Source of the DNA: Ostreococcus lucimarinus
Lineage: Eukaryota
Reading direction: 5' to 3' (one strand)
Length of the DNA: 64,000 nt
Assembly (NCBI GenBank): GCA_000092065.1
Contig: CP000586.1
Below the pieces are notes generated by a model. The model ran no database searches. It was not told the DNA's origin and saw only the letters and a list, made by a program, of their open reading frames with translations. This document shows, piece by piece, positions 5,918 through 41,361 of this stretch (positions are counted from its first letter, which is position 1; the number at the start of each line of letters is the position of its first letter). The position numbers and the translations under genes are program-made.

Positions 5918-6636
5918 GCGTCGCGCGTCGCGAACGCGACTCGCGCGACCGACTCGACGCGGCGACGAAAGGCGCGGCGACGCGCGACGAGACGCGCGCG
6001 ATGACGACGCCCGCGGCGGCGGTGAGCGCGCTGGCGCTGTTCCAGCTCGCGGACGGCGGCCTGGCCGAGGGCACGGCGAACTCGTACTACGCCACGCTGT
6101 TTCTGTTCGTGCTGAGCGCGCCGGGATTGTACTCGCTCGTCAAGCGGAGCGCCAAGTCGAAGATCACGCGGAAGACGTTCGAACTCGATGGACCGAAAGT
6201 GCCCGGAGCGGCGTCGCAGGATGAGATCGCGCGCGATGTGGGTGCGTTTTTTCGTAGAAACAACTACGTCGTCGCCGACGCCGGAGAGGTGATTACGTTT
6301 GAAGGTAACATCGCCCCAGAACGCGGCACGGCGGCGTACATCACGTTTTGCGTGTTGATTGGATTGTTGTGCATCGGACTGGTGTGTTCGATCGCGTTGC
6401 CGGGTGGGGATGCGTGGTACGCGTTGGCGCTCGCGTCGCCGCTCTCGGGACAATATTATCTCGACAACGCCGGGCGCAAGGAGCAAGTCAAGGTGAAGAT
6501 GGTCACCTCGGACGACGACACCACGGTGGATATCACGGTCGAAGGTGACGCCGAGGAGATCGAGCGCTTCAGACGGGAGTTGGATCTGACGCCCAAGGGT
6601 ATGGTTCGCGTGAAGGGCATCCTCGAGCAGGCGTAG
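5806..6636 (+). CDS. predicted plastid-targeted membrane protein (Ser/Arg-rich presequence, 2-3 TM helices); CCB1/DUF3007-like is a guess
   Basis: The in-frame ATG at 5806 ([38 protein letters not shown]...) follows a junk N-terminal extension in ORF 4927..6636. The mature part has hydrophobic helices (YATLFLFVLSAPGLY; AAYITFCVLIGLLCIGLVCSIAL) and a conserved-looking C-terminus (GQYYLDNAGRKEQVKVKM...). Confidence 0.5.
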
Positions 6637-9162: not shown

Positions 9163-12100
9163 TCACAGGGCGGTTCGGGCTTTATCTTGCGCGCGACGAA
9201 CGTTTGGTTCGGTCAAGTCTGCGGCGGAGACGTCGCGGAGGACTTCGCGGCACGCGTCGACGACGCGCTCGCGACTGCGCTCGTCGCCGACGAGCTTCTC
9301 CAGTTGGCCAGCCTCGAGGTGTGCCGCGCGACGCGCGGCGGCGAGGCAAACGCTCTCGGGTAAACCAGCGAGACGCGCGACGTTGACACCGTAGCTTCGC
9401 GGACAGTTGCCGCTCGCGAGGGTGTACAGAAAGGTGACCGTTTCGCGTCCGAGCGTCTCGACACCTGCTCCGCTCGGCGTCTCGACTCGACACGCCATGT
9501 GTGCCAACGCCACGTGAGGGTCGCGCGCGTGGTCGTCGGCGAGTCTATGGTAATGCGTGCTGAAGAGCGTACGGCAGCGCTTGTCGATGAGATGCGACGC
9601 AACCGCACACGCGATGGCTGTACCGTCCGCGGTGGCGGTTCCTCTGCCGAGTTCGTCGAGCGCGACTAGGGAATTCGTCGTCGCTCGACGAAGCATCGCT
9701 CCAGTTTCGCTGAGCTCGACCATGAATGTCGACTGCCCACCCGCTAAATTGTCTTTGGCGCCCATGCGCACAAAAACCGCATCCATAGCTGTCATCTCAA
9801 ACTTGGCCGCGGGAACGTCGGCGCCCACGTGCGCCATGATCGCGGCCAAGCAGACTTGCCTGAGGTACGTGGACTTGCCACCCATGTTCGGACCAGTGAT
9901 GAGACAGAAACCCGGATGTTTACCACCAAGCCTGGCGTCGTTCGGAACGAACGCGCGCGCGAGAGAAGACGCGCACGGGTGCGACAGGCCGACGGACTCA
10001 AGCGTCGCGGGCTCGCCGTCTCGCGGTTGCGGGTGCACCTTCGGGGTGCAAACTGCTCCACAAGAAGCGTACATTTCCTCGCTCACGACAGCCAAAGAGG
10101 CTAGAACATCTATGATTGCACCAACACTTGCCGCCGCTTGCCACTCCGAAGCGTTCTCGCAAAACTTTGCGACGATTCGACGGAACACGCCGGCGAGCGC
10201 GTCCTCGCGCGCTTCCTCCGCCGCAACTCGCTTCGCGCGCAAGGGTACCAAATCATCGCACGTGAACCGTTCGTATCCTTTGCGCTTACCTTCACGCACC
10301 CAATGATGAGGGACCTTGGACGCGAGGCGGTCAGGAACTTCGACAAGATGCGTATCTTTGTTTGCATTCACGAAACAAACCTCCGTTTTGTGACCACCGA
10401 GCTCGCCGCGCGCCTCTTCCAACCACGACGCCAGATCCGCGTCCGCTGCTGTAAGTTGCTCCTCGGCAGCGTCCAGATCGGCGTCGACGCCTTGCGCCGG
10501 CTCGATTCTCCCACTCGATTTGGCGGCGTTCCAATCGAACGCAGACTCCATTTCGTCCAGCGCGCTCAGATCCGGCATCGCGACGCCGCCGACTGCGGTG
10601 AACACGTCCTCGCGCGTCGCCGCGGCGTCGTTTACGATGCACAATGCGCGAAGCACGTCAGATTTCTCACATGCATCAACGCACGCCGCGATCGCTTTTG
10701 TAGCGTCGCGAACCGCACGAATACCCTCGAGCGCTGCGAGGAAATCGTTCAACTTTGCTCGCGCCGCATCTTCATACAAGACGACGTGCGAGGCGGATCG
10801 ACCTTTCTCGCCGCTCGATCCGACAACGCGCGAGATGGCGCGTTCCGCGTCTGGCGCGGCGCGCAAAAGCTTGCGCGCAATCCCTGTGGCCTCGATCCCG
10901 CATCCCCGCATCATAGAGACGGCGACTTGTCGAGCTCGAATAGCTGACGCGCTTGTCAAAGGGCGACACACCCAACGGCGCAACAAACGACGACCGGGCC
11001 CGCTCACACACCGATCGAGCGACGCCAAAAGCGTACCCGCGGAGCCACCTGCGGTATTCTCGAGCACCTCAAGCCCAGAAAGTGCAGCGGCATCCATGGC
11101 GACATGCGTAGAGTGTGCCCATCGCGCCAAGTGCTCCCGCGCGCCGGCGTCTGTTGTGTGCAGGGACTCTACTCGCCCTTGTGGCACTAAATCGGCGTCT
11201 ATCAGCGCGGCGCGTAAGTACGCAACGACCGTGCCCCACGCTCCGATACCGCATTCGCGAGCAGGATGGCATGCAGTGTCTCGCATTTCTTTAATGGCTT
11301 CTGGCAAACCAGTCTTAAGCGTCTTGAAGTATCCCTCCGCCTCGGCGTCCTCCAGCGCTTCGTTCGCACTCGTCGACTTAAACGTACGCTGCTGAGCGTG
11401 TGAGCACATATCCAAAACTGCCATCTTCGCTCGCGCGCTCAAGCCAGTGGGCGGAACTAAGATTTCAACCGGGCGCAGCTCCGCAAGTGCTGTGCGCAAA
11501 CAGCTTGCACCTTCGTCGTCGCGCCACGCACCGACGAGGAAACGACCCGTACCGCAGTCTGCAGCGCACAAACCGACCCAACCTTCGCCGTCCTCCTCTT
11601 CGCAGCCGTCTATTATAGAGCAAACGAAGGCAGCATCCGGCGAAGAGTTCAACATACCGGTGTCAACCATCGTACCTTTTGTCAACACTTGAACCATTTC
11701 GCGGCGAACCACAGTGTCCTTGCACGTCTTGTCTTTCTTTTTTCGCTCGGCAAGCTGCGCTGGTGTCTCTGTCTGTTCAATACACACGACGCGGTGACCG
11801 TTGCGAGCGAGCTGCTCGGCGTGCATCGCGTAATTCTTCTCTGGGAATCCAGCGTGCGGTTGCTCGCCGCGCATATACATCAATCCTAAGTCTCGCACAC
11901 CGATGTGCGCGTCCATTTCGAACATTTCATAAAACTTGCCCATCTTGAACAACAATACAGAATCGAAATTCGCCGCCTTGAACTTCCACCACTGCGCCTG
12001 CCCGGGGGAAACCGTCCACTGCACTCCGCTGGCGTCGCGCATTTTTGGAAACGTCGACGGCAACAGCAACGTGGACGGATCGTAGTCCGGATCGTCAGGA

Positions 12101-12837
12101 CGCCGACCATCGGCATCCTTAATCTTCTCCGGTTGCATAAATGGAAATTTCAACCGATCTCGCGCGTCGTATTGCTCCGGACCGACGCCTGCGAGAACGT
12201 CCTGCGCGTTCAAATCCTTTGCCTCTGTCGCCTTCGTCGGCGCCGACGTCGTATTCACCGTCGTCTTCTTTCGTCCATTCGTCGTCGACGTCGGCACCAC
12301 CTTCTTCACCGCCACTTTGGTCGTCTTCTTCTTCTTCACCGGCGTTGACTCGCTCTCTGAGAAATCGTCGTCGTCCTCCTCTTCCTCGTCTTCGCTCGAC
12401 GCCTCGCTCGAATCCGCCTCAAACGCTTCGTCGTCGTCGTCCTCTTCCTCCGCCTCCGCGTCGAAATCGCTCCCACCATCGTCATCGCTCGACTCGATCA
12501 CCATCGTTTTCGCTTTTTTCGCCACACGTCGTCTTCCGGCGACTTTCTCCGCGCTCGCGACGTTCGTCTCTGGCGGCGTCGACGCCGCGGCGACGTTTTC
12601 CTTCTCATCACCGCTCGTGGACGCGCGCGCGCGTTTCCCGCTCGCACTTTTCGCGTGCTCGCGTTCGGGCTCGCGTTCGGGTTCGGCGTCGACGACGGTC
12701 GCGTCCGCGGTCGTCGGCGCCGCCGTCGTCGTCGTCGTCGGCGCGTCGACGCTCTCGCGTTTTGGCGCGGGCGCGAAAAACGACGCGATCGAACGCTGTC
12801 CCGGCGGCGGCGCCGTCGGTTTTTGCGCGCTTCCCAT
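9163..12837 (-). CDS. MSH6: DNA mismatch repair protein MSH6 (MutS homolog), 1224 aa
   Basis: N-terminal PIP box QRSIASFF. A long acidic/basic disordered spacer follows. MutS domains are present, including the Walker A motif ITGPNMGGKSTYLRQV, the STFMVELSET motif and DELGRGT. ATG start. Confidence 0.9.
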   Translation of the reverse strand: MGSAQKPTAPPPGQRSIASFFAPAPKRESVDAPTTTTTAAPTTADATVVDAEPEREPEREHAKSASGKRARASTSGDEKENVAAASTPPETNVASAEKVAGRRRVAKKAKTMVIESSDDDGGSDFDAEAEEEDDDDEAFEADSSEASSEDEEEEDDDDFSESESTPVKKKKTTKVAVKKVVPTSTTNGRKKTTVNTTSAPTKATEAKDLNAQDVLAGVGPEQYDARDRLKFPFMQPEKIKDADGRRPDDPDYDPSTLLLPSTFPKMRDASGVQWTVSPGQAQWWKFKAANFDSVLLFKMGKFYEMFEMDAHIGVRDLGLMYMRGEQPHAGFPEKNYAMHAEQLARNGHRVVCIEQTETPAQLAERKKKDKTCKDTVVRREMVQVLTKGTMVDTGMLNSSPDAAFVCSIIDGCEEEDGEGWVGLCAADCGTGRFLVGAWRDDEGASCLRTALAELRPVEILVPPTGLSARAKMAVLDMCSHAQQRTFKSTSANEALEDAEAEGYFKTLKTGLPEAIKEMRDTACHPARECGIGAWGTVVAYLRAALIDADLVPQGRVESLHTTDAGAREHLARWAHSTHVAMDAAALSGLEVLENTAGGSAGTLLASLDRCVSGPGRRLLRRWVCRPLTSASAIRARQVAVSMMRGCGIEATGIARKLLRAAPDAERAISRVVGSSGEKGRSASHVVLYEDAARAKLNDFLAALEGIRAVRDATKAIAACVDACEKSDVLRALCIVNDAAATREDVFTAVGGVAMPDLSALDEMESAFDWNAAKSSGRIEPAQGVDADLDAAEEQLTAADADLASWLEEARGELGGHKTEVCFVNANKDTHLVEVPDRLASKVPHHWVREGKRKGYERFTCDDLVPLRAKRVAAEEAREDALAGVFRRIVAKFCENASEWQAAASVGAIIDVLASLAVVSEEMYASCGAVCTPKVHPQPRDGEPATLESVGLSHPCASSLARAFVPNDARLGGKHPGFCLITGPNMGGKSTYLRQVCLAAIMAHVGADVPAAKFEMTAMDAVFVRMGAKDNLAGGQSTFMVELSETGAMLRRATTNSLVALDELGRGTATADGTAIACAVASHLIDKRCRTLFSTHYHRLADDHARDPHVALAHMACRVETPSGAGVETLGRETVTFLYTLASGNCPRSYGVNVARLAGLPESVCLAAARRAAHLEAGQLEKLVGDERSRERVVDACREVLRDVSAADLTEPNVRRAQDKARTAL

Positions 12838-13018: not shown

Positions 13019-14716
13019 TTAGTCGCGATAACACACGCGCGTGGCGACGCGAACGATGTCTTCCACCGTGGGGAGGGCCATCTTCTCGAGGTTCTCGGCG
13101 TAAGGCATCGGGATGTCGACGCCGGCGATGCGCTCGACGGGGGCGTCGAGGTAGTCGAAGGCGTCCTCGTTGACGACGGTGGCGATCTCCGCGCCGACGC
13201 CGCACTGCGGCCAGCCCTCTTCGACGACAACCATGCGGTTGGTTTTACGCACCGAAGCCGCGAGCGCGCCGCGGTCGAGCGGGCGGAGCGAGCGGAGGTT
13301 GATGACCTCCGCGTCGATGCCTTGCTCGCGAAGTTGTTCGGCGGCTTCGAGGCAGTAGCCGACCATCTTCGAAAACGCGACGAGGGTCACGTCCGCGCCG
13401 GGCTTCATCACGACCGCCTTACCGATCGGAAGGACGAATTCTTCGTCCATGGCTTCCTTGGGCAACGCAAACTCTTGACCGTACAAGAGTTCGTTCTCCA
13501 AAAACACCACGGGATCCGGGTCGCGAATCGCCGCCTTCATCAAACCGCGAGCGTCTTCGGCGTCGTACGGCGCGAGCACCTTCAAACCCGGAATAGACAT
13601 GTACCACGCGGCGAAGCACTGAGAGTGCTGCGCACCGACTCCCGCAGCCGCACCGTTCGGGCCGCGGAAAACGATCGGAGCGGAAATCGCCCCGGCGGAC
13701 ATGTACAACGTCTTTGCGGCGCTGTTGACGATGTGGTCGATGGCTTGCATGGAGAAGTTGAACGTCATAAACTCGACGATCGGTTTCAAACCCATGAAAG
13801 CGGCACCAACGCCAAGACCAGTGAACCCAGCCTCGGTGATGGGCGTGTCGCGCACGCGATCGGCGCCAAACTTTTGTAACAAGCCCTTCGTGATCTTGTA
13901 CGCGCCTTGGTAGTCGCCGACTTCTTCGCCCATGATGAACACCTTTTCATCGCGCGCCATCTCTTCGCTCAGCGCGCTGTTCAGCGCGTCGCGAACCGTC
14001 ATTCTCGGCGAGTCCGCGGGAAGTTGCTTAGCGACCGGCGCGGCGCGCGCGTCTGAGACGTCCTCCGTCCGCCCGCTCGCCCGCGAGTTTCGCAGCGGCA
14101 CGCCTTGCTCTTTAATAGATCGATAATCTGGACGTTCCAGCACCGCGCGCGCCGCGGTCGCCGTCTCTGTCGCCGTCTCTGTCGCCGTCGTCGTCTCCGC
14201 CGTCTCCTCGGCGACGTAATCCTTAAACGCCGCCACATCCTCCTCGTTTTCGCACATCACGCACACCGCCTTCCCCACCGGAATGTCGTCCGCGTCCCCG
14301 CTCGGCACCAAAATCTTCGCCAAGTACCCCTCCTCCATGGACTCCATCTCCATCACCGCCTTATCCGTCTGCACCTCCGCCAGAATGTCCCCGGTCGCCA
14401 CTCGATCGCCCTCCGCCTTTTTCCAGCTCGCGATCCCGCCGCGCGTCATCGTCGGCGACAGCGACGGAAACGGAATCACCTCGTGCGGCGGGTACGTCCC
14501 GCTCGCGTACGTTCGCGCCCATCCCGGCGCGCGCGCGCGTCTCCACGCCGCGCACCGTCGCGCCGCCGCCGCATCGCGCGTCGTCACCGCGCCGTCGTCG
14601 CCGCGTCGCGTCGCCGACGCCATCGCCATCGATCGCGCGCATCGCGCGTCTCGACTCACCGTCTCGCGACCTCGCCGCGCGGCCGCCGCGCACGCCTCGA
14701 GCGCCGCGCGCCGCAT
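13019..14716 (-). CDS. PDHB: pyruvate dehydrogenase E1 beta subunit with an N-terminal lipoyl (biotin/lipoyl attachment) domain and a mitochondrial-type presequence
   Basis: C-terminal ~330 aa are E1beta ([29 protein letters not shown]...[31 protein letters not shown]...). Upstream in the same frame is a canonical lipoyl domain: [51 protein letters not shown]. They are joined by an Ala/Thr/Glu-rich linker with no stops. Candidate ATGs are at 14716 and 14629. Upstream of these the ORF is R-rich junk. Confidence 0.8.
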
Positions 14717-15335
14717 CTGCGAAACGCCGTCGCGCTTTCGCGTCGCGTCGTCGCGTCGTCGCGCGTCCGTGTGCGGTCGTCGCGATCGCGAATTCGACGA
14801 ACCCCCCCACACGCGGGTGTTTTCACGCCGGCGCGCCCGTCGCGTCGCCGCGCGCGCGACGACGCGACGCGCGATGCGCGACGACGGCCCGCGCGCCCTC
14901 GTCGAGGGCCTCGACGGCGCCGTCGCCCGCGCCGCGCGCGCGCTCGACGCGCACGCGCGCGGCGCGGCGGACGCGCAGGACGCGCTGTGCGCGCGCGTCG
15001 ATCGATGCGCGGACGCGCTCGAAGCGCTCGTCGACGCGATGCCGACGAGCGCGAGCGAGGCGCACGCGAAGCGACTGCGATCGCTGCGACAGCGCATCGA
15101 TGGACTGGGCGCGAGCGCGAGAGATCTGAGGGACAGGGCGCGCGCGCTGCACGACGACGCGCGCGCGAGCCGACGCGCGGATTCGAGCGCGCTCGCGGCG
15201 CGCGAGGGCGACGAGTTACCGCCGCGAGACGCGGTGTTTCGCGATGGGTGACGGCGCGCGCGCGCGATCGTTGTAATGGTGTACTGTATCGATGGCTAGG
15301 AGACGCGCGACGCGCGCGCGTCGAGAGACGCGCGA

Positions 15336-15981: not shown

Positions 15982-17526
15982 TCAGCGGGTGGGATCGGCG
16001 TCGTCGGCGTCGTCGGCGTCGTCGTCGGCGTCGGCGGCGGCGGCGGCGCGCGCTCTGTCCCGCCTGGCGGCGATGCGGAGCGCTTGGTGATAAATTTCGT
16101 CGTTGCGAGCGCCGAATTTGTGCAACTCGGCGCCATTGCGCCACGCCTCGACGCGAGCCATACGTCCTGCTTCATACTCTCCGAGATTTTTCTCAGCCTT
16201 GAGCCACTTGGCCCAATCGTCGGTGGTGCGCGCCGTCTTGTCTTTGCCGTACCACTCGGGAAGGTAGCCGCCGACGATGTGCGGCGCCTTCGGCGGACCG
16301 CCCTGCGCCATATAGCAGTTGACTCTATTCTTCCTTCCACCGATTGGACTCACTGAAGTGTCGCGGTCACCGCAAATGTGCAAAAGCAACCACGCGTCGA
16401 CCATGTTGGCACCGTTTTGTAGGATGATTTCATTGTTGATTTTCTCGGTAAATTTTGGACCGATGACGTACCCGGCCAAACCGCACCCAGCTTTGATGTG
16501 GTTTGCGGAGTACATGTACACCATTTCATCCTCCACGGGCCATTGCTTCACAAACTGCCCAGTCGGTTCGTCTCGAGCTTTGAGCAAAATCACGTCCGCG
16601 TTCGCCGGAGCGTTATCGATCACGCTTTGCAACGCGTACGGCTTCATGCGTATGCCACCCCAAAGCGCGTCGCTTTCAAAAATCACCGTCCACTTGTTCT
16701 TGAACTTTGAATGCAAACGCCACATGCGCATGTGCGAAAACAAACAACTGATGTGATGCGAAACCCCGTATAAAAACTTTGGCAAGACGCCGACACCGTC
16801 TTTGTTGGACTTGGCCGCAGACAACCCGCCGAACCACTTGTCTAAGTTCGCGTTCGGGCGAAGCTCTTTGAGTTCCTCCAACGCCTCTTCCGTGAGATCA
16901 AACGTTTTCGGCCACGCGTTAGCGTTCGTACCGTACTGAATCTGCACCAGCTTATCTGCTTGATCACGCGCCTCGTGCTCATGGCTGCCTGCGTTCTCAC
17001 CAAACGTTTTCACGAACTGGCGCTTCACGCCCTCCGCGCGCTTCACGTCGTACTTCAAGTCTTCGACGGCGATGACGTATATCGGCGTCTCGAGCTTCCG
17101 ACGCGTGCGGTTGCCACCGACCGCGAAATAGCGATCGGAAGAAAACGAAGGAAACGAGTTCTCGTACGAGTCTGCCTTCGCCGCTTCCAGGGCCGCGCCC
17201 TCGAGTCGCACTTGATCCATCTCCGCGAACGCCAGCGCTGGGGTGTTGACTTGCTCCAGCGGCAGGTTTGGCGTCCACACCGGCTTCCGTGCGCGACCGA
17301 GCGCGCCGCGACGCGCCACGACACTCGTCGTCAAGCTCGCGGCGGCAAAGAGCGCGCCGGCGAGCGCGAACGCGGCGATGGCGCGAGATCGTCGTCGCGC
17401 GGAAGCATCGCGTGATCCTTCCTCAAAGTATTCCGTCGCCGCGTCGCCGCTCACGCGCTGGCGTGGACGCGACGGATCGCGATCGATCAGCGTTCGCCGC
17501 TCATCGACGTTCGTTTCCAGCGCCAT
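15982..17526 (-). CDS. type II membrane glycosyltransferase, GT25-like (copy A of a tandem pair)
   Basis: Short cytosolic N-terminus, a single TM helix (AIAAFALAGALFAAASL), then a lumenal domain with GT25-like motifs: YVIAVEDL...; VSHHISCLFSHMRMW (compare IGCFLSH..W); WTVIFESDALW (compare ILEDD). ATG at 17526. Confidence 0.7.
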   Translation of the reverse strand: MALETNVDERRTLIDRDPSRPRQRVSGDAATEYFEEGSRDASARRRSRAIAAFALAGALFAAASLTTSVVARRGALGRARKPVWTPNLPLEQVNTPALAFAEMDQVRLEGAALEAAKADSYENSFPSFSSDRYFAVGGNRTRRKLETPIYVIAVEDLKYDVKRAEGVKRQFVKTFGENAGSHEHEARDQADKLVQIQYGTNANAWPKTFDLTEEALEELKELRPNANLDKWFGGLSAAKSNKDGVGVLPKFLYGVSHHISCLFSHMRMWRLHSKFKNKWTVIFESDALWGGIRMKPYALQSVIDNAPANADVILLKARDEPTGQFVKQWPVEDEMVYMYSANHIKAGCGLAGYVIGPKFTEKINNEIILQNGANMVDAWLLLHICGDRDTSVSPIGGRKNRVNCYMAQGGPPKAPHIVGGYLPEWYGKDKTARTTDDWAKWLKAEKNLGEYEAGRMARVEAWRNGAELHKFGARNDEIYHQALRIAARRDRARAAAAADADDDADDADDADPTR

Positions 17527-17637: not shown

Positions 17638-19185
17638 CTAGTGTGTCGACGGGCTTGCCGCATCTGTCGCAGCCTCGCCCGCTGCTGCTCGGGCTTTCGC
17701 GCGCTTGGCTTGAAGCCGTAACGCTTGTCGAAGCATTTCGTCGTTGCGAGCGCCGAATTTGTGCAACTCGGCGCCATTGCGCCACGCCTCGACGCGCGCC
17801 ATGCGGCCCTTATTGTACTCCGCATCGTTCTTCTCAGCCTTGAGCCACTCGGCCCAATCGTCGGTGGTGCGCGCCGTCTTGTCTTTGCCGTACCACTCGG
17901 GAAGGTAGCCGCCGACGATGTGCGGCGCCTTCGGTGGACCGCCCTGCGCGTGATAACAGTTGAGCTTATTCTTTCGTCCGCCCTCACCACTCACCCTCGG
18001 GTCGCGCACGCTACAGATGTGATTGATCAACCATGCGTCGACCATATCTGCGCCGCCACTATAAATGATCTGTTTATACAGCTTCTCCGTAAACTTTGGA
18101 CCGACGATGTAACCCGCTAACCCGCACGCAGCCTGGACTCGATTCATAGAGTACATGTAGATCATTTCATCCTCCACCGGCCACTGCTTCACGAACTGCC
18201 CGGTCGGTTCGTCTCTGGTTTTGAGAAAGATCACGTCCGCATTCGCCGGAGCGTTATCGATCACGCTCTGTAATCCTTTTGGAGGAATGTGGAGGCCTGA
18301 CCACAAGCCGTCGCTTTCGAAAATCACCGTCCACTTGTTTTTCAATTTTTGATGCAACCGCCACATGCGCATGTGGGAAAATAAGCACCCGACGTGATGC
18401 GAGATGCCGCGTACCGCTCTCGGTAATAGACCATCGTGCAGTTTCGCTGCCGCTAAGTTGGCGAACCAAGACATGTGGTTCGTCGGGCGGAGCTCTTCGA
18501 GGCCTTCCAGCGCCTCCGTCGCGAGCTCAATGGTGTGCGGCCACGCGAGGGCGTTGACTCCGTCTTGAGTTTGCACCAACTTCTTCGCCTGTGCGGCAGC
18601 TTCGTGCGTCCGATTGATGTAGTTCGGACTCTCGCTAAACGATCGCACGATCGCCGCCTTTAACGAATCCGCCTTTGCCAAATCGGGTTTGGAGTCCGCC
18701 AAGGCGATGACGTACACGGGCGTCTCGAGCTTCCGACGCGTGCGGTTGCCACCGACCGTGAAATAGCGATCGGAAGAAAACGAAGGAAACGAGTTCTCGT
18801 ACGAGTCTGCCTTCGCCGCTTCCAGGGCCGCGCCCTCGAGTCGCACTTGATCCATCTCCGCGAACGCCAGCGCTGGGGTGTTGACTTGCTCCAGCGGCAG
18901 GTTTGGCGTCCACACCGGCAGATGCGCAGGTTTCGCCCCTAACCGAGCCCCTGGATGCACGTGCATCTTCTGCGTGTGCGTCAGCATGTCCACCGTGAGC
19001 CCGACGCAGGCGAGACACGCGCCGAGGAGCGTGAACACGCTCAAGGCGAAGAATCTCCTTCGCGCCCAAAGCTCGCGCGAATCCGCTTCAAAGTATTCCG
19101 TCGCCGCATCGTCGCTCACGCGCTGTGTCGGTCGCGCGATGAGCGTCTGTCGCTCACCGCCGCGCGCGCTCGCGGTGAGTGACAT
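17638..19185 (-). CDS. type II membrane glycosyltransferase, GT25-like (copy B, paralog of 15982..17526)
   Basis: Same architecture and motifs as copy A (ISHHVGCLFSHMRMW; WTVIFESDGLW). The ORF-track start at 19221 is a GTG. The first ATG (MSLTASARGGERQTLIARPTQRVSDDAATEYFE) is at 19185 and aligns with the copy A N-terminus. Confidence 0.7.
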   Translation of the reverse strand: MSLTASARGGERQTLIARPTQRVSDDAATEYFEADSRELWARRRFFALSVFTLLGACLACVGLTVDMLTHTQKMHVHPGARLGAKPAHLPVWTPNLPLEQVNTPALAFAEMDQVRLEGAALEAAKADSYENSFPSFSSDRYFTVGGNRTRRKLETPVYVIALADSKPDLAKADSLKAAIVRSFSESPNYINRTHEAAAQAKKLVQTQDGVNALAWPHTIELATEALEGLEELRPTNHMSWFANLAAAKLHDGLLPRAVRGISHHVGCLFSHMRMWRLHQKLKNKWTVIFESDGLWSGLHIPPKGLQSVIDNAPANADVIFLKTRDEPTGQFVKQWPVEDEMIYMYSMNRVQAACGLAGYIVGPKFTEKLYKQIIYSGGADMVDAWLINHICSVRDPRVSGEGGRKNKLNCYHAQGGPPKAPHIVGGYLPEWYGKDKTARTTDDWAEWLKAEKNDAEYNKGRMARVEAWRNGAELHKFGARNDEMLRQALRLQAKRAKARAAAGEAATDAASPSTH

Positions 19186-19390
19186 CGCGCGTTCGGCGAC
19201 GGCAAGTGCGGCCGTGATCACGCACGCGGGGTGTTACGAGTTCGCGCTCAAGCGCGGCGACGATGACGACGACGACGACGGGCGATTATGCGTGCGTGGC
19301 GATCATAAACGAGGTCAAAATAGTAATGAATGAGTTCTCTCATCAACTGCGTTGTTACAAATACATGGCGGTCGCGCGCTCGAGCGCGCC

Positions 19391-33564: not shown

Positions 33565-35757
33565 ATGACGAACGACGACGGCGACGGCGACGACGACGAC
33601 GACGCGCCCGAGGACGTCATCGAGGAGTACGACGGCGAGACGAACGACGCGGGACGCCCGCACGGGGAGGGATACGCGTGGTACGCCGACGGCACGGAAT
33701 ACGTGGGAGGATTCGTGGACGGCGCGCGGAGCGGCTACGGAAGGCTGTGGCTCGCGAGGGACGAAGACGAAGATTACGACGAAGACGACGATGTTCCGAA
33801 CGCGTTTTACCTCGGGGAATGGAAGGACGATCGACCGCACGGTAGGGGCATACAGGTGTCGCGCGACAAAACCTGGTTGCAGGGAAATTTTGAGAGCGGG
33901 GAGTTGCGAGGGGAGGCGTATTTGTCGACGCAGGTTTCCATTGGGGACCCTCGGTACATGGGCGAGTTCGGCGACGACGGCGCGTTCGGGGGCGTGGGGA
34001 CGATGTACAACCGGTGCGGCGGGCGACTGACGGCGAATTGGAAGGAAGGTGACATCGCCGCCGGGTTAGCGGTGTGGGAAGGTGACAGCGCGCGCAGGCG
34101 CGAGTCGACGGCGGTGGTGGCGTGGACGCGAGAGAGTTTCGGAGACGCCGAACGAACGGGAAAGTGGACAGATTTGGTCGCGCGAGGCGCGGTGGTGGTG
34201 CGTTTTGTAAATGTGGATACGTCTTATGAAGCGGGTTGCCGTCATAGACCCGAGGTGCGCGAATTTCTACGCGCTTTGAATGCCGTCGACGCTCGTCCTG
34301 GTTCGAGCGTACGAGCGGCCATCGAAGCCAGCGCGGTGGCGAGGAAGGCCGTCGAATTCGACTACGAAGCAGACGTTGCGACGACAGACTTATTGGCGAG
34401 CCTTACGTTGGCGCGCTATGTCGAGAGCTTGCGTGTGCGTGTGAGCCGAACGGCCCCGCTCGAAGTGCGTGCGACAGAAGACATGCATCGGCACGCCGTC
34501 GTCGCTTTTTATTCTGGCACCGTCGGTGAAGTCCGCGGCGTTTCTGCGAGCGACGCAGAGCGTCTCGCGAGCGATGCCATCATGCTTCGCGAGGAGGACG
34601 ATGAGGACACTCAAGAGATCGTGGCCGAGTACGATAAAGATCGGAGTAGTATCGCATACGCGCAGTCTCACGGCGTGCGCGTGATCCATCTCGACGTCGG
34701 CGCGGACGCGCTCTGCGCGAATTTTGTTCGCGTGGAGACGAAACACGAAACGAATTGCGAGCGCATGTTCTTCGAAAACCATCCCATCTTTGGCGATGCG
34801 GTGTTTCTTAGAACTAAAAGGTGTATAGCGAAGGACGAGGAGTTGACGGTCGCGCCAGACTACTTTTTCGGTTGGTGCTTAGACCCGTTGAGTGAGGCGG
34901 GCTATTACGAAAGCATGCGTTGTCATCCACCAGAGGTGATATTTGAGAGAGACAACGACGTCCTCGAACTCGGTCGCGTGACGGTGAAGCGACACGGCCG
35001 ATGGCGAGCGCTATACCTTGGGAATGTTGAGCAAGGATTGTCGTACGCGCCCACCGACGATGCGCCGCCGTCGCACGAAGTTCTCGGGTTTCAATACATC
35101 CGAGCGATGGCGATCGCCACCGTTGACCGCATCCGCGCCGAGAGACACGCCACGAAGTCGACGTCGATCGTCGCCGTCGGTCTCGGCACTGGTGCGCTAC
35201 CACTGTATCTGGCGAACGCACCCGACTTGAACGTCGACGTGGTCACCGTCGAATGCAGCCAAGCGGTCATCGACGCGTGCGCGGCTATCCACGTGCCTAT
35301 GCGCATAATCGATCGCGAAGGAAAATCCTCCGGAATCCCCGCCGCGAAGAAACGACGACGTTCGCGTTCGGAGCCGTCGCCGATTCGCGTCCACCGCGCA
35401 GACGCCTTGGACTATTTCCAGCGATGCATCGCAAAAAATATCACAGACAATCGTGTGGCGTCCGTGGACGTCGTCTTGTTGGACGCGTACGACGGCGACG
35501 GCAAAATCCCCGAGCGCGTTCGAGACGACTTCTTCATTCGATCCGTCGCGAGCTCGTTATCGCCCGTCGGCTTTTGCGTGTGCAACTGTTGGGACGGCCC
35601 CATAGGTTCGGAGGCCTACCACGAACTCCACATGTTCTCCAATCTTTTGGATCGTCACTTTTCGCTCATCGAGCGCGTGAGCGTGGTGGGTCAAGAGTAC
35701 AACGTCATTTTAATAGCGTCGCGCGCTCGGGCTCCCGGTGAGCGTTTGCGTTTGTGA
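33565..35757 (+). CDS. multidomain methyltransferase: MORN repeats plus SETD7-like SET domain plus C-terminal spermidine-synthase-like (class I SAM) domain
   Basis: MORN repeats: GEGYAWYADGTEYVGGFVDGARSGYGRL; YLGEWKDDRPHGRGIQ; WLQGNFESGELRGEAY. The SET C-terminus ENHPIFGDAVFLRTKRCIAKDEELTVAPDYFF matches the remembered SETD7 C-terminus (NHS…HPRFGPIKCIRTLRAVEADEELTVAYGYD). The C-terminal block is IVAVGLGTGALPLYLANAPDLNVDVVTVECSQAVIDAC…VDVVLLDAYDGDG…FIRSVASSL. ATG start. Confidence 0.75.
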   Translation: MTNDDGDGDDDDDAPEDVIEEYDGETNDAGRPHGEGYAWYADGTEYVGGFVDGARSGYGRLWLARDEDEDYDEDDDVPNAFYLGEWKDDRPHGRGIQVSRDKTWLQGNFESGELRGEAYLSTQVSIGDPRYMGEFGDDGAFGGVGTMYNRCGGRLTANWKEGDIAAGLAVWEGDSARRRESTAVVAWTRESFGDAERTGKWTDLVARGAVVVRFVNVDTSYEAGCRHRPEVREFLRALNAVDARPGSSVRAAIEASAVARKAVEFDYEADVATTDLLASLTLARYVESLRVRVSRTAPLEVRATEDMHRHAVVAFYSGTVGEVRGVSASDAERLASDAIMLREEDDEDTQEIVAEYDKDRSSIAYAQSHGVRVIHLDVGADALCANFVRVETKHETNCERMFFENHPIFGDAVFLRTKRCIAKDEELTVAPDYFFGWCLDPLSEAGYYESMRCHPPEVIFERDNDVLELGRVTVKRHGRWRALYLGNVEQGLSYAPTDDAPPSHEVLGFQYIRAMAIATVDRIRAERHATKSTSIVAVGLGTGALPLYLANAPDLNVDVVTVECSQAVIDACAAIHVPMRIIDREGKSSGIPAAKKRRRSRSEPSPIRVHRADALDYFQRCIAKNITDNRVASVDVVLLDAYDGDGKIPERVRDDFFIRSVASSLSPVGFCVCNCWDGPIGSEAYHELHMFSNLLDRHFSLIERVSVVGQEYNVILIASRARAPGERLRL

Positions 35758-37686: not shown

Positions 37687-40600
37687 CTACACGAGACGCC
37701 GGAACGCGAATTTCAGACTGGTGGCGCACGTCGAGGACGTCTTCGTCAACCGGATTTGGAAAAACATGTCCATGTTGGCTGTTCTCCCCGTTCGAATTGT
37801 TCGTAGCTCGAAAAAGTTGCCGCTGCTCGCGTGACCAGCTTGATGGAGACGAACAACGTTTGCGCTATTGTCGTTTGTTTGTCCGTCGTACCAGGAGATG
37901 ATGCCGGTCGCAAGTTCGGACCAGAGCCCGCCGCCGCACGAGTCGTTTGTGGTCGTGGGCAGAATTTGTACAACAAAGCTCCCGCCAGAATCGTCCGCCA
38001 TGTCCAAAGCGTGATTGAAACCCCAGATATTTTGCCAGGACGTGGTAAGTGTGAGATCTACCTCGAGCAGTTTCACTCTGTCGACGGCTGTTCCGATAAT
38101 GTTTGCCGGAATATGCATGCTCGACGACGCCTGCGCGGGAAACACGCGACGGAACCAGATGTGAAACGTCTGCCGTGAGTCAAGATCTTCGTTCGTGAGG
38201 AGCTGCAATCTGAGGTTCGTGCCAGCTGTGCGCCACGATCGCTTCGTTCGAAGCTTTATATACTTGTTATTTTGGCCGTGGCCCGATGCATGTAGTTGGA
38301 TCTCGTTGGCGTCATCCGAGTTCGTTCCAGAACCGTACCAAGACATCAAACCGACGTAAGACACGTGCCACAAATTTCCGCCGTTCCCGTGAGTGGATAC
38401 GTGCGCGATCTGAACGAAATAAGAGCCCGTGGACAGATGATCACCGTGTATACCCGTGTCCACCCACTCGTTGGGGACGGTTGATACGCTGACCGGAAAA
38501 TGCGACAAATCGTCCATTTCGTTCTTCGGAGGAATGCCGCCGCTTGGATGTGTCCTCTGAGGATTGGGCATAACGCGGCGGAACTTAAAAATGTACTGAG
38601 CGATATTTTTTGTCGTCCCTCCATCCACCTTCGCTTGTAATCGCAAAAGACCTTGGTCTGATCTCAAACTTTCGAGCGTTCGAAGACGGACTCGTTGACC
38701 ATTTGACGCGTGTCCGGATGCGTGAAGCTCTATTTCACTCACTTGATTGCCGTTCGTATTTTGAGCGTACCAACTCATCAAACCCGTATAAAATTCGATC
38801 CAGTTGCCACCGCCATTCGAGTGTGTGTTGACGTTGTAAATCTCTACGACATATGAACCATGTACGAGGTCGATACCGATCACGCCGGTATCGACCCAAT
38901 CATTCTTCAAGTGGAACGTCGCCGTACGAGAGAAGATGTCGCCAACGGGATCTTTCCGGTCGCTGTTGAGTCCAGAAAATGATAACTTAAACTCTTGCAC
39001 CAAGCTCTGAGAGGCCGATGGAACAGAAATCGGCTCCGGCGTTGTGAACTGGCACGCTGGACTGCACGACGGCTTGGTTGTACTTTGAGGCGCTGAGCAG
39101 GCGTGGAAGAGCTCTTTCTCGAGAAAGTACCCGTCGCTGCTATATGCCTCGCCGATAAGTGGTTCAAAGTCGAAGAGAGTTATCACTGGATCCATCCCTA
39201 GGGGCGGCTCATTTTCAGTCGGAAGCGGTTTGAGAACGACCGTGGCTCCGACGACCGTCTTCGGGATCTGCACGTACGCGCCTGCGCCCAGTGCGCTGCG
39301 TTGACACTGATTCTTCGTGTTTGACGCGTAATCCCAGTTTGTCCACATCGCGGTAAGCGATTCGGGCCCTGCGTGACAAGTTGCGCCTGATTGTTCGATC
39401 TGGAAAAACGCGTCGAAACCAGTGTAGACGTCTTGTTGCGCTGCAATTTCAGGCCCCGCGCAAACGACACCAGCGCAAAGTGCCACCCACGCATGGTCAA
39501 GTGACGCCACAGCGCCGACTTGCAAGCCAGCAATACCTCGCGCATCAAGAGAGCTGGTTGACGACACCCGAGGCTCGCCGAATCTGACAAAATTCTGCCC
39601 TTGTCCGGCCCCGAACGAAACCGTGATTGGAAATTCAACGTCCACTTGGAAATCGTAAGTTCCTGCGACTTCGGCTCGAAAGTAGTAGGGAAGACGAAAG
39701 TCTGCTTCGTAGTCCATGGCGATGAACAAACCAGGAGCGATTGCAGTAACTTTAGTTCCAGTGAGAGCGTCGTCACGCTCGAAAAACTCGCTAAGTAGTT
39801 CTCCTTCACGAAACGAAAGCTGGGCTACCTCGATGCCGAGGGAGAAACTGTACTTGAGCGTGGTCGAAGCTTGGATTCTCACATCCTTCATGTCGTTTAA
39901 CGCCGCGATGAGATCGGTGCGGAAATCGTTGAAAACTTCTTCAAACGTATCGCCACCCAGCGCAGCCTCGCCGCGCGCTCGCGCGGATGCCACACCCAGT
40001 TGGCTCGTCATCTTTGATTTGAATCCGTCGCCAGAGTTGAAAATATCGTGCAGAACGATGAGCTCTTCATAGAAGACGCGTTCCTTCGAAGATAAATCTT
40101 GCTTGAGCTCGGTCAAAAGGGCGTGCTGATCGTCGCTGAGAAGTTTTCTTCCAGTAATTTGCTCACCAAAATTTTCAATCTGCTGAACGACTCCCTTGAC
40201 ACCGGAGGCTTCGTATACGGCGTCGAACATAGCATCAAACATTCCCAAGAACGCTTGAATCACCTTCACAGCGACGCTAGGCGGGATGTCAAACTTGTCG
40301 AGCGTTTGACACAGCGCAATCGTGAATTTGGGGGTACGGATATTCAAATTGTTCGGCGAGTACGGATTATCGGACGCGAACTTGTCCGGCCACGGCATGG
40401 GAGGGGATGGACTTTCAACGTCCGACCAAAGTTGTGTCGGAATCTCGTGACAAAATCCAAACACACGTCCGAGCGCGGCGGTGTCAGAATGTATTTCCTC
40501 AACTCTCGAGTTTTCGATGAGCTCCTCGCCGGCAAACGCTCTGCGTAAGTTTTCTCGAAGATGCGCGAGGAACGCGGCCCGGTCAGCGCCGTCTTTTCCC

Positions 40601-41361
40601 CGCGCAGAGCCGAGAGTGGCGGCTGAAGATCCACCCATGACGTCGTCGAGAGCCCCTTGAATCATGCTCAAGAGTGAGTCTGCGCTCAGGTTCAACCAAG
40701 GATCCCACACCATCCCGAGCAGCCCCTTCAGTTTGTCCGGCAAGCCTCGGGCGATGTCCGGCAGCGCGAGCACCGCGTCGACGACGTCATCGAGCGCGTC
40801 GCAAACCTTGGAGTTCGAACCGATCAACTCGCACGCCGCCGTCTTCACCGTTTCGATCGACGCCGTCGGGCTCGACAGCGCGTCGACGACCCCCTTCACG
40901 CCGCAGTACGAATATCCATCGATCGCCGGCAGGTTGATGGGCACGTCAATATTCGCGTTCGGCATATCCACGTTCACCGAGTTTCCTCCGACACTCACGC
41001 ACTTCTTCATCACGCACTTCTTCACCTTCGGCAGTTGCACTCTAACCTGCGAGCCGTACACGTCGTGCAGCGACGTCTTGAACATCACCTCCGACTCCGG
41101 GCACGAGATCGCCGGCAGGTTGAACGCGCCCAGCGTCGCCGCGTCCGCGCGCGCGCGCGTCGCCGGCGCCGTCGCGAGGAACAGCGGCGAGAGGTCACCG
41201 CGTCCGCCGCGCGCGAGGCATCCGACGAGGCATCCCGCGGCGAAGGCGAGCGCGACGCCGCGCGTGACGCGTCGACCGGCGCCGCGCGCGAGGAGGGCGT
41301 CGGACGCGTCGTCGATTTCCGCGTCGTCGCCGACGGGCGCGGCGCCGTACGACGCGCGCAT
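37687..41361 (-). CDS. large secreted or membrane-anchored protein of unknown family with three C-terminal ~120-aa tandem repeats
   Basis: 1224-aa ORF from an ATG. It has an N-terminal hydrophobic segment (VALAFAAGCLVGCL), a ~800-aa globular region with scattered Cys, then three paralogous C-terminal repeats. The repeats share W(V/Q)DTG(V/I)xG…GSYxVQI…TH(S/G)NGG(G)N(L/W)W…TGLMSWY…TN…(L)HASGH…LRT. No family recognised. Confidence 0.55.
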   Translation of the reverse strand: MRASYGAAPVGDDAEIDDASDALLARGAGRRVTRGVALAFAAGCLVGCLARGGRGDLSPLFLATAPATRARADAATLGAFNLPAISCPESEVMFKTSLHDVYGSQVRVQLPKVKKCVMKKCVSVGGNSVNVDMPNANIDVPINLPAIDGYSYCGVKGVVDALSSPTASIETVKTAACELIGSNSKVCDALDDVVDAVLALPDIARGLPDKLKGLLGMVWDPWLNLSADSLLSMIQGALDDVMGGSSAATLGSARGKDGADRAAFLAHLRENLRRAFAGEELIENSRVEEIHSDTAALGRVFGFCHEIPTQLWSDVESPSPPMPWPDKFASDNPYSPNNLNIRTPKFTIALCQTLDKFDIPPSVAVKVIQAFLGMFDAMFDAVYEASGVKGVVQQIENFGEQITGRKLLSDDQHALLTELKQDLSSKERVFYEELIVLHDIFNSGDGFKSKMTSQLGVASARARGEAALGGDTFEEVFNDFRTDLIAALNDMKDVRIQASTTLKYSFSLGIEVAQLSFREGELLSEFFERDDALTGTKVTAIAPGLFIAMDYEADFRLPYYFRAEVAGTYDFQVDVEFPITVSFGAGQGQNFVRFGEPRVSSTSSLDARGIAGLQVGAVASLDHAWVALCAGVVCAGPEIAAQQDVYTGFDAFFQIEQSGATCHAGPESLTAMWTNWDYASNTKNQCQRSALGAGAYVQIPKTVVGATVVLKPLPTENEPPLGMDPVITLFDFEPLIGEAYSSDGYFLEKELFHACSAPQSTTKPSCSPACQFTTPEPISVPSASQSLVQEFKLSFSGLNSDRKDPVGDIFSRTATFHLKNDWVDTGVIGIDLVHGSYVVEIYNVNTHSNGGGNWIEFYTGLMSWYAQNTNGNQVSEIELHASGHASNGQRVRLRTLESLRSDQGLLRLQAKVDGGTTKNIAQYIFKFRRVMPNPQRTHPSGGIPPKNEMDDLSHFPVSVSTVPNEWVDTGIHGDHLSTGSYFVQIAHVSTHGNGGNLWHVSYVGLMSWYGSGTNSDDANEIQLHASGHGQNNKYIKLRTKRSWRTAGTNLRLQLLTNEDLDSRQTFHIWFRRVFPAQASSSMHIPANIIGTAVDRVKLLEVDLTLTTSWQNIWGFNHALDMADDSGGSFVVQILPTTTNDSCGGGLWSELATGIISWYDGQTNDNSANVVRLHQAGHASSGNFFELRTIRTGRTANMDMFFQIRLTKTSSTCATSLKFAFRRLV

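Follow-up and report, generated by a model that had tools for sequence, protein, structure and literature searches.

The stretch of DNA analysed here, in full the window, comprises 64,000 nucleotides of contig CP000586.1 from the picoalga Ostreococcus lucimarinus (assembly GCA_000092065.1). It carries a gene in which a lipoyl domain is joined to the beta subunit of the E1 component of pyruvate dehydrogenase (PDH E1β). A reading of the letters alone (the original prediction) had placed a lipoyl domain and a complete E1β in one uninterrupted reading frame, and this is borne out: Pfam finds, in one frame and in this order, Biotin_lipoyl (58.1 bits, cutoff 22.1), Transket_pyr (142.7 bits) and Transketolase_C (152.6 bits). 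The NCBIfam model NF008854 (PRK11892) is an "equivalog" model for PDH E1 component subunit beta whose 464 positions include both the lipoyl domain and E1β. It matches the protein end to end and across both parts, with 670 bits against a cutoff of 454 (query residues 81-564, model positions 5-464 of 464) and an E value of 1.6e-201, so that the domain matches lie far beyond chance; a further model, NF006667, matches with 532.6 bits. The gene is a conserved and already annotated variant of the standard alphaproteobacterial PdhB layout and represents no new kind of enzyme, because that layout is standard in alphaproteobacteria and common to other prasinophytes. It is probably a nuclear gene for a mitochondrial PDH E1β, built as a presequence, a lipoyl domain, a disordered tether and E1β, in which the lipoyl domain would provide an extra swinging arm.

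The E1β body aligns essentially without gaps to human mitochondrial PDHB (1NI4_B; 434 bits, about 59 % identity), and on the strength of this alignment the E1β part is classed as mitochondrial-type and alphaproteobacteria-derived. Canonical mitochondrial E1β, as represented by human PDHB, shares this body with the algal protein. It differs in having a short cleavable presequence that ends about three residues before TVRDA, and it has no lipoyl domain, linker or junction motif. The AlphaFold2 (AF2) model of the algal protein has an overall mean predicted local distance difference test score (pLDDT) of 78.9, with a confident lipoyl barrel and E1β body and a disordered tether between them. The folded lipoyl domain occupies residues 41-135 of the 536-residue protein and forms a beta-barrel with pLDDT values of 76-95. 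The lysine predicted to be lipoylated had been placed in the motif TDKA, and this assignment is upheld: T88-D89-K90-A91 is invariant in 61 out of 61 aligned fused proteins, algal and alphaproteobacterial, and K90 sits in a hairpin turn between the modelled strands 82-87 and 92-96 (pLDDT 84-95). Lipoylation itself is a prediction from these features. By eye, the site also fits the PROSITE lipoyl-site pattern.

Upstream of the lipoyl domain lies an N-terminal extension whose first 51 residues contain nine Arg or Lys, four Asp or Glu and 14 Ala, and which AF2 models with pLDDT values below 50 except for a helix at residues 17-31. The equivalent segment of the Ostreococcus tauri protein is a classic Arg/Ala-rich presequence, and the annotation of that orthologue includes the words "mitochondrial precursor". 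The mitochondrial-type presequence proposed originally is therefore retained as an Arg/Ala-rich extension, with targeting as its putative role, suggested by the composition.

Sequence comparison identifies a single gene encoding a single polypeptide, not two neighbours that happen to be in frame, as had been offered as an alternative. The O. tauri protein is 83 % identical to that of the window, and the same polypeptide of lipoyl domain, linker and E1β is found in Bathycoccus prasinos (XP_007513054.1) and Cymbomonas tetramitiformis (KAK3279665.1). In Pyramimonas sp. CCMP2087 and P. obovata it is known from transcriptome assemblies, with transcripts that span both parts. Many marine metagenome and metatranscriptome sequences carry the fusion as well, and many marine contigs show the same synteny. 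The named eukaryotic carriers are all prasinophyte chlorophytes (Mamiellophyceae and Pyramimonadophyceae), to which a Chloropicon-like lineage can be added. In two divergent algal lineages, represented by contig L084, a relative of Chloropicon by grouping, and by contig L087, with the UMP1/Snapin/E1β/MutS synteny of the window, the reading frame is unbroken from the lipoyl domain into E1β, and a stop codon occurs only just upstream of PSLSPTM (near 5971 and 2989, respectively). The position of this stop suggests an intron between a presequence exon and the lipoyl domain, an intron that the window gene lacks. Contig L084 also carries a second, unfused E1β-type gene at 10094..11173 on the minus strand (359 residues, Transket_pyr and Transketolase_C), about 2.6 kb from the fused gene; presumably it encodes the E1β of plastid PDH or of a branched-chain complex. 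Homologues of about 430 residues that lack PF00364 were considered as true unfused forms and rejected, as their sequences come from short contigs and start within the lipoyl domain (for example P0070). A Chloropicon transcript, P0118, starts exactly at MTVRD and may be truncated too.

It has to be asked whether the fusion could be an artefact, either of accidental in-frame neighbours or of an assembly or frameshift error. The region has a GC content of 63-71 %, and chance open reading frames (ORFs) of 322-425 residues overlap the gene on the opposite strand; for these reasons the length of an ORF is no evidence here, and long chance ORFs in GC-rich DNA are what an artefact would draw upon. Against this, the protein is identical, but for one residue, to the publicly recorded P0121, and near-identical, P0121-type sequence occurs on at least 254 independent contigs. 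The ORF is continuous in lineages that are only 57-83 % identical, whose linkers vary in length in-frame while being conserved at the protein level. In addition the Pyramimonas transcripts cover both parts and one hidden Markov model covers the whole protein. With the fusion conserved in this way an artefact is refuted, and its probability is practically nil.

The location 13019..14716 given originally holds as a set of coordinates, provided that it is read on the minus strand; translation of the plus strand is full of stops. The minus-strand translation consists of 565 residues and a stop, and carries the lipoyl peptide quoted in the original prediction, TDKA included. The start at 14716 is less secure. 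The same ORF extends upstream to an ATG at 15097 (692 residues), and this longest version was rejected as a gene because it overlaps a divergently transcribed gene on the plus strand (Table 1). Public gene models start the E1β gene at the second Met, at 14629, which gives 536 residues and leaves 244 bp between the two divergent genes. On these grounds the start at 14629 is favoured, and that at 14716, which sits within the 244-bp intergenic gap, is less likely; the O. tauri presequence has a length comparable to that of the 536-residue model.

Table 1. Features of the lipoyl-E1β gene and of its divergent neighbour (positions in the window)
Feature	Position	Strand	Evidence or remark
Most likely lipoyl-E1β coding sequence, 536 residues	13019..14629	-	Translation; public 536-residue models in same synteny; stop at 13019..13021
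N-terminal extension, putative mitochondrial presequence (ends ...WARTYASGT)	14495..14629	-	Composition; AF2 model
YPPH flank, eukaryotic E2-type, directly upstream of lipoyl domain	14483..14494	-	Aligns to human E2 flanks
Lipoyl domain, Pfam PF00364 core	14258..14476	-	Pfam match; AF2 beta-barrel; similarity to human E2 domains
Codon of predicted lipoyl-lysine in TDKA	14360..14362	-	K119 (565-residue numbering), K90 (536-residue numbering)
C-terminal flank VAAFKDYVA of lipoyl domain, eukaryotic E2-type	14210..14236	-	Aligns to human EDIEAFKNY and ADISAFADY
Flexible linker from lipoyl domain to E1β, about 70 residues	14009..14209	-	AF2 pLDDT below 50 for residues 143-187; in-frame length variation
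Conserved eukaryote-specific linker motif	14069..14152	-	Sequence conservation; disordered in AF2 model
Junction segment LPADSPR just before E1β core	14003..14023	-	PdhB-like; AF2 pLDDT 73-93
E1β pyrimidine-binding domain, Transket_pyr	13475..13999	-	Pfam match; PDHB alignment
E1β C-terminal domain, Transketolase_C	13052..13420	-	Pfam match
Small Snapin/Pallidin-like gene	14874..15251	+	Pfam PF14712, 26.8 bits, below cutoff of 29.6; bounds 5′ end of E1β gene

Lipoyl domains had been described originally as normally present only on E2 or on E3BP, and the architecture as unusual. Neither statement holds in general, as a lipoyl domain on E1β is the standard form of PdhB in alphaproteobacteria, with an NCBIfam model of its own. 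A scan of GTDB, with one genome per species and an Azospirillum protein as query, returned at least 600 candidate stretches; among the 600 candidates listed, at least 595 encode a relative. Eighty loci were kept (L001-L080), mostly from alphaproteobacteria, and all 80 include the lipoyl domain, since their matches begin at residue 1 of the query. Alphaproteobacterial PdhB and the algal protein have lipoyl domain, flexible linker and complete E1β in the same order, are 56-58 % identical over 86 % of the window protein, and share a similar short motif at the junction with the E1β core. PdhB differs in beginning directly at Met-Pro, whereas the algal protein has its N-terminal, putatively targeting extension. 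The PdhB linker is plain and Ala/Pro-rich, without the ERPDYRPI…SRA motif of the algal linker, and the PdhB lipoyl domain lacks the eukaryotic flanks YPPH and AFKDY. Among chains in the PDB none spans lipoyl domain and E1β together. The earliest description of the layout is reported for the E1β of Zymomonas mobilis, to judge by the titles of work by Neveling et al. in 1998 (J Bacteriol 180:1540) and by Neveling, Bringer-Meyer and Sahm in 1999 ("…a lipoyl domain in E1β"; FEMS Microbiol Lett 177:117).

The algal gene thus adds a eukaryotic member to a known architecture. It is annotated publicly as PDHB, and as far as our literature search went no discussion of a eukaryotic lipoyl-E1β fusion was found. 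A comparable case is offered by bacterial E3, as lipoyl domains are listed on the E3 of Alcaligenes eutrophus, Neisseria meningitidis and Mycoplasma hyopneumoniae (reviewed in PMC7873978). There, likewise, a lipoyl domain has moved from E2 to a peripheral component, although the host subunit is E3 and the lineages are unrelated. Among the more divergent bacterial lipoyl-E1β-like proteins (40-46 % identity), five replace the lysine motif (P0226, P0228, P0230, P0262 and P0297, with DRM, ERM, EHG, GHL and STA), and their lipoyl-like domains are degenerate and presumably non-lipoylated.

The layout of the algal protein is bacterial, and its lipoyl domain is, by sequence similarity, of the type borne by eukaryotic mitochondrial E2. 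When the flanks are included, its alignments to the two domains of full-length human E2 reach 102-103 bits each, and those to the isolated human domains 107-108 bits. These alignments take in the upstream YPPH (LPPH in human L1, YPPH in human L2) and the downstream EDVAAFKDY (EDIEAFKNY and ADISAFADY in the human domains). A moss E2 contains DLPPH three times, and its three LPPH-flanked domains give scores of 105-115 bits. By comparison, the 80 alphaproteobacterial PdhB domains reach a median of 71 bits and a maximum of 83, the E2 domains from the same alphaproteobacterial loci a median of 77 and a maximum of 86, and domains of E3BP/PX 60-69 bits. The mitochondrial E2 (DLAT, including human L1 and L2 and plant mtE2) therefore matches the algal domain best, both flanks included; it differs in having a peripheral subunit-binding domain (PSBD) and an acetyltransferase core downstream of the lipoyl domain, where the algal protein has E1β.

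Neighbour-joining trees of lipoyl domains with 500 bootstraps, one of 65 and one of 91 domains, agree with this assignment. Eukaryotic domains, from E2 and from fused E1β, are set apart from all alphaproteobacterial domains in 488 of 500 replicates of the smaller tree and in 461 of the larger, and a clade of all E1β-borne lipoyl domains appears in none of the 500 replicates of either. The fused algal domains are monophyletic in 303 and 233 replicates, respectively, and their sister is then found only among eukaryotic E2 domains; in the full tree they lie closest to domains of putative green-algal E2 and E2-like proteins.

The original prediction had suggested that the fusion could replace a lost E3BP in a rewired PDH core. 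E3BP (PDHX) is, like the algal protein, a lipoyl-bearing component that is not itself an acetyltransferase. It differs in combining a PSBD that binds E3 with an inactive E2-like core, and the algal protein has neither: no PSBD (PF02817) is detected in it by Pfam, nor on the linker at E values up to 10, and no E2-like core (PF00198) is present, the C-terminal part being E1β. Since a PSBD defines E3BP function, and since the lipoyl domain is like that of E2 (102-108 bits to the human domains) and not like that of E3BP (60-69 bits), a replacement of E3BP is unsupported. E2 paralogues that are catalytically dead and resemble E3BP do exist among marine eukaryotes of the green lineage, and we know of no E3BP in the alphaproteobacteria that carry the same fusion. 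This explanation is accordingly regarded as very improbable.

The E3BP-like paralogues came to light in searches for the E2 of these algae. A protein search returned plant E2s and a marine E3BP-like family, and no E2 of Ostreococcus or Bathycoccus; a scan of metagenomes with the core of the moss E2 returned mostly bacterial E2s and a few eukaryotic ones, and none that could be assigned to Mamiellophyceae. The marine family (L091, L092, P0490-P0494, P0496 and P0498) consists of green-lineage E2-like sequences with about 64 % GC, one LPPH-flanked lipoyl domain and a PSBD, in which [LA]DGRA[FYH]GG stands where an active E2 has the catalytic DHRxxDG, an E3BP-like feature. The "E2" homologues of Chlorokybus and Riccia have DNR in place of DHR. 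Together these sequences suggest that E3BP-like paralogues occur in Viridiplantae.

The linker between lipoyl domain and E1β carries a motif, ARAxxERPD[YLI]R[PA][IT]…G·PLR·SRA, that lies 36-49 residues before the E1β core. It is kept in 16 variants that are less than 80 % identical to each other, was found in 168 retrieved proteins, and is absent from bacterial PdhB. The possibility that it is a degenerate PSBD left over from a captured E2 was rejected, as no Pfam model matches the linker even at E values up to 10 and a comparison with 67 PSBDs by hhalign gives a probability of 0.03 %. In its conservation and predicted disorder the motif behaves like a short linear interaction motif. Closer to E1β, the junction of about seven residues (LPADSPR, or LPEGAS in another lineage) resembles the [IFL]P[AE]G[TA][EP] of many alphaproteobacterial PdhB proteins, such as FPADSPMKTMTV in L032 and IPAGTEMVTQTV, with further instances in L056 and L072. 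In the algae this junction stands three residues closer to TVR than the PdhB junction motif does. It is absent from unfused animal E1β and is modelled as ordered by AF2, and judged by its sequence it looks PdhB-like.

Two histories of the algal fusion can be set against each other. A secondary capture of an E2 presequence and lipoyl module is favoured by the E2-type lipoyl domain together with the narrow distribution of the fusion in eukaryotes, whereas retention from the bacterial ancestor is favoured by the PdhB-like junction and by the near-universal occurrence of the fusion among the closest bacterial relatives of mitochondria. The E1β bodies of the algae group together in 227 of 300 bootstraps, beside animal E1β and inside the alphaproteobacterial radiation. 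The lipoyl domain is a less straightforward witness. Across 69 alphaproteobacterial loci the PdhB lipoyl domain is 81 % identical to that of the E2 (PdhC) of its own genome and 73 % identical to those of other genomes, and in 27 of the 69 no E2 domain is closer than the one from the same genome; the lipoyl tree likewise pairs domains that belong to a single multi-domain E2. These identities point to homogenisation of PdhB and PdhC lipoyl domains within genomes, by concerted evolution or co-evolution, which limits what lipoyl-domain phylogenies can tell. An ancestral E1β domain that had been overwritten by E2 sequence would look E2-type too. As a rough judgement from these sequences, capture is given somewhat less than an even chance, and the rest goes to retention with homogenisation or to a history that the sequences cannot decide. 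In its strongest form capture would make the fusion a convergent re-invention and no relic of PdhB, in which a chlorophyte ancestor placed a mitochondrial E2 presequence and lipoyl module onto E1β and evolved the docking motif ERPDYRPI…SRA in the tether; we put this forward tentatively, as a serious possibility that falls short of being the expected one.

As to function, the lipoyl domain would give the complex one more swinging arm, anchored on E1 itself. The proposal is made because E1 normally acetylates the lipoyl domains of E2, and the algal domain is of that type. The TDKA lysine would be lipoylated after import into the mitochondrion, and the domain would undergo reductive acetylation in the active site of E1, either in cis or on a neighbouring E1. 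Acetyl groups would then be passed to the E2 core and the arm re-oxidised by E3. The complex could in this way possess more lipoyl arms, at a higher local concentration at its periphery, and the conserved linear motif in the tether would probably dock on another component of the complex.

Several observations weigh against this scheme. The presequence is called from an Arg/Ala-rich composition, and the linker motif that is to dock on a partner is predicted to be disordered (pLDDT below 50, residues 143-187). The transcripts that span both parts come from Pyramimonas, a different organism from that of the window. The lysine-less bacterial paralogues indicate that a lipoyl-like domain borne on E1β can persist without a role as acyl carrier, and a literature search covering algal and bacterial lipoyl-E1β found no report of experimental lipoylation, import or catalytic use.

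Some of the same observations would fit a lipoyl domain whose role is chiefly regulatory or structural and that does not carry acyl groups. It could, for example, dock PDH kinase, PDH phosphatase or E3, or help in the assembly of E1, with the linker motif as an interaction site. Mammalian PDH kinases dock on an E2 lipoyl domain. A conserved motif found only in eukaryotes within an otherwise variable, disordered tether would be expected of such a role, as would the divergent bacterial paralogues that keep the domain without its lysine. The invariance of TDKA, and of the lipoylation signature around it, throughout the 61 aligned fused proteins is, however, what selection for lipoylation would produce, and we know of no PDH kinases in the alphaproteobacteria that share the layout. 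A regulatory or structural role is for these reasons considered rather unlikely, though the most credible of the alternatives to an extra swinging arm.

It is also conceivable that the product is a precursor polyprotein, cut within the linker motif after import to yield a free lipoyl protein and an E1β of canonical size. Internal processing of fused mitochondrial precursors occurs in other systems, and the motif has Arg-rich stretches (…R·SRA…) some 20-28 residues ahead of the E1β core, within disordered sequence, where a cut of this kind would fall. Yet the residue after SRA is often Pro (Pyramimonas-type sequences read SRAP), which is unfavourable to processing, and the segment from the motif to the core is itself conserved and is modelled as packed on E1β. 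Bacterial homologues are reported to work as intact subunits of 45-50 kDa. Cleavage is thus improbable, and an E1β that stays joined to its lipoyl arm is preferred.

The remainder of the window is an ordinary gene-dense region of a eukaryotic nuclear genome, in which no tRNA genes were found. Its ORFs include members of TFIIB-like, aminotransferase, LYR, MutS/MSH6-like, UMP1, RCC1, SacI/WW, APC1 and RPAP1 families. The gene equivalent to the Snapin/Pallidin-like neighbour is called with 125 residues in L081-L083, which are public contigs near-identical to the window, and with 154 residues in L086-L088; its position beside UMP1 and the E1β gene is kept in several Mamiellophyceae-like contigs. 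Four further ORFs of 514-1224 residues, at 15982..17526 (-), 17638..19221 (-), 33565..35757 (+) and 37687..41361 (-), are matched by no Pfam model at the thresholds applied. The last of these has the same length (1224 residues) as the MutS/MSH6-like gene at 9163..12837, a coincidence.

Whether the fusion is conserved, a point that the original prediction had raised, is answered by its occurrence from O. tauri and Bathycoccus to Pyramimonas and Cymbomonas. A small practical consequence is that annotation should note the extra lipoyl domain, and that an additional band is to be expected in lipoyl proteomes and on anti-lipoate blots. Lipoyl-E1β is nearly universal in the alphaproteobacteria, the relatives of the mitochondrial ancestor, and as far as could be found its role has been established in no organism; its occurrence in globally abundant picoalgae such as Ostreococcus, Bathycoccus and Pyramimonas offers a eukaryotic system in which it can be studied. 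The question posed is whether lipoyl-E1β was present in the first mitochondria and then lost by most eukaryotes, or was rebuilt by green algae, and with it what advantage an arm tethered to E1 gives. If the fusion did arise by convergent capture, these picoalgae would possess a differently wired PDH complex, and an E1-tethered lipoyl arm would have been selectively favoured twice.

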